Source: Candidatus Heimdallarchaeota archaeon (GTDB lineage: Archaea; Asgardarchaeota; Wukongarchaeia; Wukongarchaeales; JBHIFL01). From it: a stretch of 54,775 nucleotides of DNA. Position numbers and translations under genes: made by a program. The stretch is from contig JBHIFL010000019.1 of NCBI GenBank assembly GCA_046761065.1, forward strand, positions 1-54,775, read 5' to 3'. Below the pieces are notes generated by a model. The model saw nothing but the letters and a program-made list of their open reading frames with translations. It had not been told where the DNA came from and did not search any database. Positions 45,318 to 46,106 of this stretch are shown here, in pieces. Numbering within the stretch: the first letter of the stretch is position 1; each line of letters starts with the position of its first letter.

Positions 45318-45839
45318 GGGCGGGTGGTCTAGTTCGGTTATGACACTAAAGTGATGGCATAAAGCCGCGCTCACACCGCGGAGGTTCGTGGGTTCGAAAC
45401 AGTGGAGTTGTCAAAATGAGGAAGTTTAGTAACTACGAATGTAGAATTATTGAGAGTGTGCTAAATTTTGATGGTTCTATTACTTGTGAAGTGACAAGAC
45501 AATAGCTACAGTGGTTGTTTCTGAAATTATTCGTGTGTCGTTTTCCTATAAATCAAAAGAATTTCTAAAATGACTAAGAGAATTCTTGGTTGTAGGCATA
45601 AATTCACTCGGAAAAAAGATGAGAAATGCTACATGTTCGCAATCGGATAAACCAATTCAAATGATTACTATAACAGATCAAGCTTGTGGTAAAAAAGGAT
45701 AAATAAAGGTTGCACTGAAATTAATTCGATTTAAAGCACAACAATTCAAAGACACAAGGATAACTTACCTAATTAGTATAAATAGGAAATTGATAACTTA
45801 ATAGAGCAATTCTACACTGCGTAAATCCCACCCCGCCCA
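45318..45839 (+). tRNA. tRNA-Val(CAC) with a 19-nt intron at 25/26 (45345-45363) and a 427-nt intron at 59/60 (45399-45825)
   Basis: Acceptor GGGCGGG(45318)/CCCGCCC-A(45832-39); anticodon arm CCGCG-CT-CAC-AC-CGCGG; T arm GTGGG-TTCGAA|T-CCCAC split by the long intron with terminal BHB. Confidence 0.88.
45416..45801 (+). pseudogene. Decayed LAGLIDADG-like homing endonuclease inside the tRNA-Val intron
   Basis: ATG after GGAG: MRKFSNYECRIIESVLNFDGSIT (LAGLIDADG-like helix), then frameshifted pieces IRVSFSYKSKEFLK*LRE, ILGCRHKFTRKKDEKCYMFAI, LL*QIKLVVKK, VALKLIRFK. Confidence 0.7.
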
Positions 45840-46106
45840 CTACATTGCAATGCAGTTAATAAATTTTGAAGAATTTGAAAGGAAAGTATGAACATTAGAT
45901 GTTTCCATAGAAATGCCATCAGGAAATATAATTTCATATTATTCTGGATATTTTAAAAAAGTTAAGTAATAGTTAAAGATCTGTCTATTTGCAATTGATC
46001 TAGCTGAAGCAGATCCATTATTTTTTAGGGGATTATAGGAGTGTGGAAAACTGGAATGGATATATTTTCTACTATTAAAAACAAATTGTATACAATTTCT
46101 GAAACA

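Follow-up and report, generated by a model that had tools for sequence, protein, structure and literature searches.

A decayed LAGLIDADG homing endonuclease gene within a T-loop intron of an Asgard archaeal tRNA-Val gene

For archaeal rRNA genes, BHB introns that bear LAGLIDADG genes are textbook knowledge and cycles of homing and decay are known for them, whereas tRNA introns are treated as short and non-coding. The enzymes of the rRNA introns include I-DmoI, from Desulfurococcus 23S rRNA, and I-Vdi141I (PDB entry 3e54). LAGLIDADG genes in BHB introns have been described for archaeal rRNA genes (PMC4496867, PMC6125680), with the 16S rRNA introns of Thermoproteales as one case of LAGLIDADG-encoding BHB introns (PMC4496867). 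Bacterial tRNA genes are known to contain group I introns, some of which carry homing-endonuclease genes (PMC3984707).

Short non-canonical tRNA introns are found in Asgard archaea and Thermoproteales, with multiple BHB introns per gene, position 59/60 included (bioRxiv 10.64898/2026.10.13.758758); earlier descriptions of such introns are those of Sugahara 2008 and Fujishima 2010, as cited in that preprint. The preprint, which dates from October 2026, describes heavily interrupted Asgard tRNA genes whose inserts are non-coding and have a median length of about 22 nt, reports little evidence of intron copying between tRNA types, identifies no general arrival route and leaves homing endonucleases unmentioned (bioRxiv 10.64898/2026.10.13.758758). 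In the main review of tRNA introns the word 'homing' is absent (PMC4090602), and the literature searched on tRNA introns, BHB motifs, homing endonucleases and Asgard archaea yielded no account of an endonuclease gene within a BHB intron of an archaeal tRNA.

Here we describe a tRNA-Val(CAC) gene that lies in three pieces in the window, the whole stretch of 54,775 nt that was analysed (Table 1). Its second intron is, with high probability, the dead copy of a mobile intron that consisted nearly entirely of a 136-codon, single-motif LAGLIDADG gene. The neighbours of the tRNA gene are archaeal and encode a KH-domain protein, Alba, L40e, L38e and aIF5A, the latter having its nearest named relatives in Hodarchaeota and Heimdallarchaeota bins at 50-56% identity. 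The host genome is a metagenome bin of 4.4 Mb in 234 contigs, estimated to be 91% complete with 8% contamination.

Table 1. Pieces of the tRNA-Val(CAC) gene, its two introns and the relic reading frame
Feature	Position	Strand	Description
tRNA-Val(CAC) exon 1	45318..45344	+	Acceptor 5' strand GGGCGGG, nt 8-9, D arm (positions 1-25); ARAGORN, spliced sequence
Intron 1, 19 nt, position 25/26	45345..45363	+	BHB assigned by hand; removal needed for cloverleaf
Exon 2	45364..45398	+	G26, anticodon arm CCGCG CTCACAC CGCGG, anticodon CAC 45372-74; 6-nt variable loop AGGTTC, T stem 5' strand GTGGG, T loop nt 54-59 TTCGAA
Intron 2, 427 nt, position 59/60	45399..45825	+	BHB intron; splice sites fixed by alleles L072, L075 and L091
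LAGLIDADG homing endonuclease pseudogene, single motif	45416..45824	+	ATG 45416, stop TAA 45822-24
Exon 3	45826..45839	+	T60, T stem 3' strand CCCAC, acceptor 3' strand CCCGCCC, discriminator A73

The locus illustrates why annotators miss such tRNA genes. ARAGORN reports no tRNA in the window and no Rfam family reaches its gathering score there, as the original prediction from the bare sequence had anticipated for standard tools. A 77-nt tRNA-Val(CAC) is called once both introns are taken out. Removing the long intron alone is insufficient, as the 19-nt insert splits the junction of D arm and anticodon arm. The prediction had correctly recognized the 427-nt insert and the T loop that it splits into TTCGAA (45393-98) and TCCCAC (45826-31), but it had overlooked this second BHB intron.

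The same site was found in several other states. A scan of metagenome contigs with the exon pattern led to three orthologous loci: L072 contains the same tRNA with the 19-nt intron and an uninterrupted T loop, while the syntenic locus L073 and the locus L074 have second introns of 167 and 106 nt, respectively, with ends the same as those of the window's. Intact introns of 429 nt, named beforehand as something to look for in related genomes, occur at the same tRNA position and in the same neighbourhood in L075/L076, L090 and L091. Including the window, seven alleles are compared in the following.

Both introns can be assigned to BHB motifs by applying the rule of a 4-bp helix with a 3-nt bulge on each strand, which is cut after the second bulge base. 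In intron 2 the T stem (GTGGG 45388-92 with CCCAC 45827-31) serves as outer helix, and the central helix pairs TTCG 45393-96 with CGTA 45820-23 (U.A, U.U, C.G, G.C), giving three standard pairs out of four and one U.U mismatch. The bulges are AA/A (45397-99) and AA/T (45824-26), with the slash marking the cut. Within the intron, CAGTG 45400-04 pairs with CACTG 45815-19, and a 10-bp extension, GAGTTGTCAA/TTGATAACTT, includes GAGTTG 45405-10 with CAATTC 45807-12. These pairings and the bulges AAA and AAT were already part of the original prediction, and they hold with a geometry that fits a BHB. The junction that this geometry predicts is exactly that of allele L072, which lacks the intron, and the last intron base, which is G in L075 and C in L091, helps to fix the splice sites. 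In the minimum-energy folds calculated by RNAfold the T stem and both inner helices are formed in all five alleles folded. The motif persists in the dead and in the shortened copies, and among intact copies the first 20 and the last 70 intron bases are invariant.

Intron 1 has a perfect central helix (TATG 45339-42 with CATA 45358-61) flanked by the bulges AC/A and AA/G. It is present in all seven alleles, also in L072 where intron 2 is missing, and measures 17 nt in L091; its interior varies between alleles, with an invariant GCATAAA on the 3' side. The host genome encodes two EndA paralogues and RtcB. Interrupted tRNA-Val genes also occur in other families of the phylum: L010, L011, L013 and L014 (from G043, G052, G013 and G010) contain two to four inserts each, located at 25/26, in the anticodon loop, in the variable region and in the T loop. 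At 25/26 the inserts of G043 and G052 terminate in CATAAA/CATAAG, much as that of the window does.

Is the tRNA gene still in use? One could imagine a dead gene, whose long insert is never spliced and in which nothing is functional. Such a reading would suit the lack of an encoded CCA, which was noted early on and is real (CTA follows the discriminator at 45840-45842, giving ACTA), in a genome where nearly all other recovered tRNA genes do encode it. It would also suit the variable loop of only 6 nt and the fact that tRNA-Val(UAC) could read GUG. However, the exons are identical in all seven alleles except for two variable D-loop positions (TTCGG, CTCGG or CCCGG), with the differences confined to one or two bases in L072, L074 and L091 and with exon 2 invariant throughout. 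Over the same set of alleles, intron interiors and flanks diverge by 16-50% (the interiors alone by up to 17%), and the neighbouring genes show synonymous distances of 0.05 to about 1. The variable loop AGGTTC, likewise raised as a caveat in the prediction, is conserved in 7/7 alleles and therefore is a real feature and not a sign of decay. Moreover, L072 carries these exons uninterrupted, the splice motif has survived the ruin of the reading frame, and no second tRNA-Val(CAC) was found in the 91%-complete bin, in which the only tRNA-Val genes detected are those with the anticodons CAC, GAC and TAC. We regard a dead tRNA gene as very unlikely. Since exons and BHB motif are conserved while intron interiors and neighbouring genes diverge, they argue that the tRNA-Val(CAC) gene is probably used and its intron removed. 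As to the CCA end, L072 and L091 encode CCA, L074 has TCA and the remaining alleles have CTA.

What the long intron once encoded is difficult to read from the window. Pfam searches with hmmscan, using the three read-through frames and the joined reading P0001, returned no LAGLIDADG match at E <= 10, and neither did phmmer searches of the same sequences against those of the PDB return a LAGLIDADG match. The spacing of stop codons does not differ from that in Markov shuffles (P = 0.35), nor is the frame any more open than theirs. An HMM that we trained on 30 LAGLIDADG domains from inteins of the phylum gave marginal, colinear signals in the window (4.7 bits, P = 0.02) and in L073 (4.3 bits, P = 0.03); the window match covers IRVSFSYKSKEFLK*LREFLVVGINS, at profile positions just after the motif. 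Taken by itself, the evidence of the window would leave the endonuclease claim unproven. Other candidates were set aside: a match of the last frame (45659-45825, frame of 45399) to ORF E73 of the Sulfolobus virus SSV (E 0.065) was taken as chance, the 2328-aa repeat protein P0002 was a spurious match from a phmmer search, and a group I intron or a C/D-box RNA found no Rfam support, the sole match being snoR160 at E 8.3.

The family assignment comes from intact relatives. An exhaustive phmmer search with the second frame of the window (45493-45798, stops as X) against 1.84 billion representative proteins recovered the intact 136-aa homologue P0003 (E 9.8e-5, 46% identity over 81 residues). In Pfam, where the LAGLIDADG homing endonucleases have the entries PF14528 / PF00961, P0003 matches LAGLIDADG_3 with 34.5 bits (cut-off 22.5, E 2.6e-8) and LAGLIDADG_1 with E 0.002. 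The profile check proposed with the prediction thus has a divided outcome: it fails on the frames of the window and succeeds by way of P0003. Searched back against the genome of the window, P0003 finds C19:45483-45821 at E 5.7e-17 with eight stops read through, and it is only through this homology that the relic is tied to the LAGLIDADG family. P0003 shares 89% identity with P0004 and 87% with P0005, two further intact proteins. All three are encoded within tRNA-Val(CAC) at position 59/60, between Alba/L40e and L38e/aIF5A.

In the intact introns the reading frame occupies bases 18-428, i.e. 411 of 429 (96%). Its last codons (…EIDNLIEQFYTA, stop TAA) also supply the 3' strand to each of the closing helices and to the central helix of the BHB. 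The motif reads IEGLLDSDG in P0003-P0005. In the PDB, a profile of the three proteins matches I-MsoI (E 0.0045) and 3e54, an enzyme of an archaeal rRNA intron (E 0.017). A structure model calculated from an alignment of 32 sequences, which includes known LAGLIDADG domains, shows the order alpha-beta-beta-alpha-beta-beta-alpha at low confidence (pLDDT 57.5); an earlier model from three sequences was unusable (pLDDT 46). When this low-confidence model was compared by Foldseek, the best 50 PDB matches were all LAGLIDADG proteins, with a best E of 3.7e-3.

Compared with these copies, the relic in the window can be followed over its full length. The peptide pieces singled out in the prediction, IIESVLNFDGSIT, RVSFSYKSKEFL, ILGC, CYMFAI and LVVKK, align in order to P0003, and a GGAG at 45404-07 precedes the ATG. 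The relic does not end near 45801 as had been assumed, but runs to a TAA that is part of the 3' splice motif. Over 425 aligned bases the window intron shares 83.5% identity with that of L075, and it has a length of 427 nt against 429 nt. In the alignment to L075 there are six indels of 1 nt each, namely insertions near 45486 and 45518 and deletions after 45565, 45663, 45694 and 45761, as well as six in-frame stops at codons 26, 78, 86, 96, 121 and 124 of the intact frame. The motif has become IESVLNFDG, by which G is replaced by S and D by N while the Asp-Gly is kept. Because the substitutions are spread evenly over the codon positions (28/19/22), the decay appears neutral. Judged from its sequence, the window copy is a full-length gene in neutral decay, with no truncation; the decayed LAGLIDADG gene of the prediction therefore stands as to decay and homology.

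Could the frameshifts and stops be errors of sequencing or assembly, leaving an intact endonuclease gene in the window? The sequence does come from a metagenome bin of many contigs with some contamination, and an A-run holds one of the six indels. The other five, however, are outside homopolymers, and the six stops were made by substitutions and are of all three kinds. At 47 positions the window has a unique substitution where three intact copies agree, and conserved residues of the motif are themselves replaced. Hence we consider errors of this kind practically out of the question, and a dead gene remains the preferred reading.

The alleles also bear on how the intron moves. Between L075 and L090 the divergences of intron and host agree, with a synonymous distance of about 0.08 against 0.04-0.15. 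Between L075 and L091, L40e differs at 17 of 35.7 synonymous sites (0.48 per site) and the intron ORF at 6.5 of 84.3 (0.08; Fisher P = 4e-6). At synonymous sites the divergence of the L091 intron is hence about one sixth of that of the L40e gene, some 100 nt away. The intron aligns to that of L075 with no indel in 429 nt while the flanks do not align, and the L40e protein of L091 has substitutions in common with L074. As the intron is far less diverged than L40e, it would have entered one of the two lineages well after the split of their hosts. This discordance, for which a single metagenome contig of 1 kb (L091) and 52 codons of host sequence provide the data, indicates that the intron probably moved horizontally, and it supports the description of the intron as mobile in the original prediction.

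An alternative holds that the LAGLIDADG protein of the intact frame has lost its part in moving the intron and has been domesticated, for example as a factor that binds RNA or resembles a maturase, and that inheritance is vertical only. Among intact copies dN/dS is 0.61-0.77, which implies that selection on the intact protein is weak and that nuclease activity is not assured. This value and the even spread of substitutions would suit a protein without a role in mobility. The agreement of intron and host between L075 and L090 is as vertical descent predicts, and maturases of the LAGLIDADG type are among the structural matches of the model. Against it, BHB introns are spliced by a host enzyme, which makes a maturase unnecessary, and the catalytic Asp-Gly is kept in all intact copies. 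The L091 intron speaks against a vertical-only history, and the alternation of presence, decay, deletion and absence among relatives is the pattern of a selfish element. We therefore hold this alternative to be improbable, and continue with a mobile intron.

Taken together, the intact, frameshifted, deleted and empty alleles are a cycle of invasion, decay and loss, as Goddard and Burt reportedly described for homing-endonuclease genes. The intron is single copy in its genome and was not found by DNA search in 60 relatives. A search of 400 Asgard genomes with P0003 gave weak intein-type matches only, and back-translated patterns together with the exon pattern had no match in the genome contigs searched.

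How might such an element persist within a tRNA gene? Both BHB introns would be cut out by the archaeal splicing endonuclease EndA and the exons would be joined by RtcB. The 17-nt leader and the last ~40 coding bases of the long intron would, besides their other roles, form the closing helices that present the splice sites. By analogy to the BHB introns of archaeal rRNA genes, the endonuclease, probably a homodimer, would cut the DNA of the T arm in an uninterrupted tRNA-Val gene, and the intron would be copied into the cut site as the break is repaired from an allele that bears it. In the lineage of the window the endonuclease gene has decayed neutrally with splice motif and exons staying intact, while in sister lineages the interior of the intron has been deleted, down to 167 and 106 nt.

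Introns at 59/60 are not limited to this gene. ARAGORN and Rfam detect only 12-17 tRNAs in the 4.4-Mb genome, whereas a strict T-loop scan revealed at least 22 other tRNA genes with a hairpin intron of 27-34 nt at 59/60, for example at C19:7625, C19:11419, C19:37168, C19:38596 and C28:23581. The gene at C28:23581 has a T arm identical to that of tRNA-Val(CAC) and a 59/60 intron of 30 nt, and the tRNA-Val genes with anticodons GAC and TAC have introns of ~30 nt at the same position. In the strict scan the 427-nt intron is the only credible long 59/60 intron of the genome. A tRNA-Ala with a '455-nt intron' called by ARAGORN on C1 is a false positive within coding sequence.

The prediction had proposed the long intron as a progenitor of the short ones. 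This has support at the tRNA-Val(CAC) locus itself, where the 167- and 106-nt derivatives occur; the support does not extend to other tRNA genes, whose 27-34-nt introns are plain hairpins and resemble the ends of the 427-nt intron in nothing beyond the demands of the BHB motif. It is a speculative and rather doubtful idea that this endonuclease lineage, recognizing the near-universal T-arm DNA (GGTTCRAATCC), seeded the short 59/60 introns throughout this genome and in Asgard archaea. If true, the introns of 27-34 nt would be the end products of a cycle leading from 429 to 427, 167 and 106 nt, and homing followed by decay would be a general route of intron gain in Asgard tRNA genes.

Small LAGLIDADG ORFs elsewhere in relatives were also considered, one in a 16S rRNA intron and one free-standing, none of them in a T loop. 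In L067 (G092:C73:13800-16151) a 16S rRNA gene of 2293 nt, compared with a model of 1478 nt, contains a LAGLIDADG ORF of 281 aa, which is the classical rRNA-intron arrangement within the same phylum. In L065 (1198-1818, G025:C1) a free-standing two-motif ORF of 206 aa lies between genes in a T-rich region, with a tRNA that bears an intron ~500 nt downstream and with no flanking tRNA exons.

The significance of the locus lies in the fact that intact, frameshifted, two deleted and empty forms occur at one orthologous site, which offers a concrete and testable route to tRNA introns. It also demonstrates that an intact relative can reveal the identity of a decayed gene which profile searches miss. 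Eukaryotes, to which Asgard archaea are the closest known relatives, likewise splice their tRNA introns with a homologous enzyme.

How does the tRNA-Val intron compare with the systems described so far? Group I introns of bacterial tRNA genes offer a parallel in that a mobile intron with an endonuclease gene invades a tRNA. These are self-splicing ribozymes in the anticodon loop and in bacteria, whereas the tRNA-Val intron is a BHB intron in the T loop; to our knowledge, the endonucleases in the known bacterial cases belong to other families. The homodimeric enzymes I-CreI, I-MsoI, I-CeuI and I-CvuI, which are encoded in group I introns, have one motif and are of a similar size class as P0003, with the same alpha-beta-beta-alpha-beta-beta-alpha order as far as the low-confidence model of P0003 tells. 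They are only about 15-20% identical to it and reside in self-splicing introns of organelle or bacterial rRNA genes. The tRNA-Val intron, unlike these hosts, has no group I core: Rfam gives no match, and the ORF leaves no space for one.

The short introns of other Asgard tRNAs resemble those of the tRNA-Val genome in that several BHB introns occur per gene, 59/60 included, but they are non-coding and have a median of ~22 nt, compared with 427-429 nt containing a mobility gene or its remains. With the BHB introns of archaeal rRNA genes the tRNA-Val intron has in common the BHB motif, splicing by the host EndA, as predicted here, and a LAGLIDADG gene. It differs from them in its location in a tRNA, at 59/60 of the T loop, and in the tiny ORF of 136 aa with one motif, which takes up 96% of the intron and has its 3' end and stop inside the splice motif. 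What is added here is an Asgard host, a T-loop site, a minimal one-motif enzyme and a full series of alleles.
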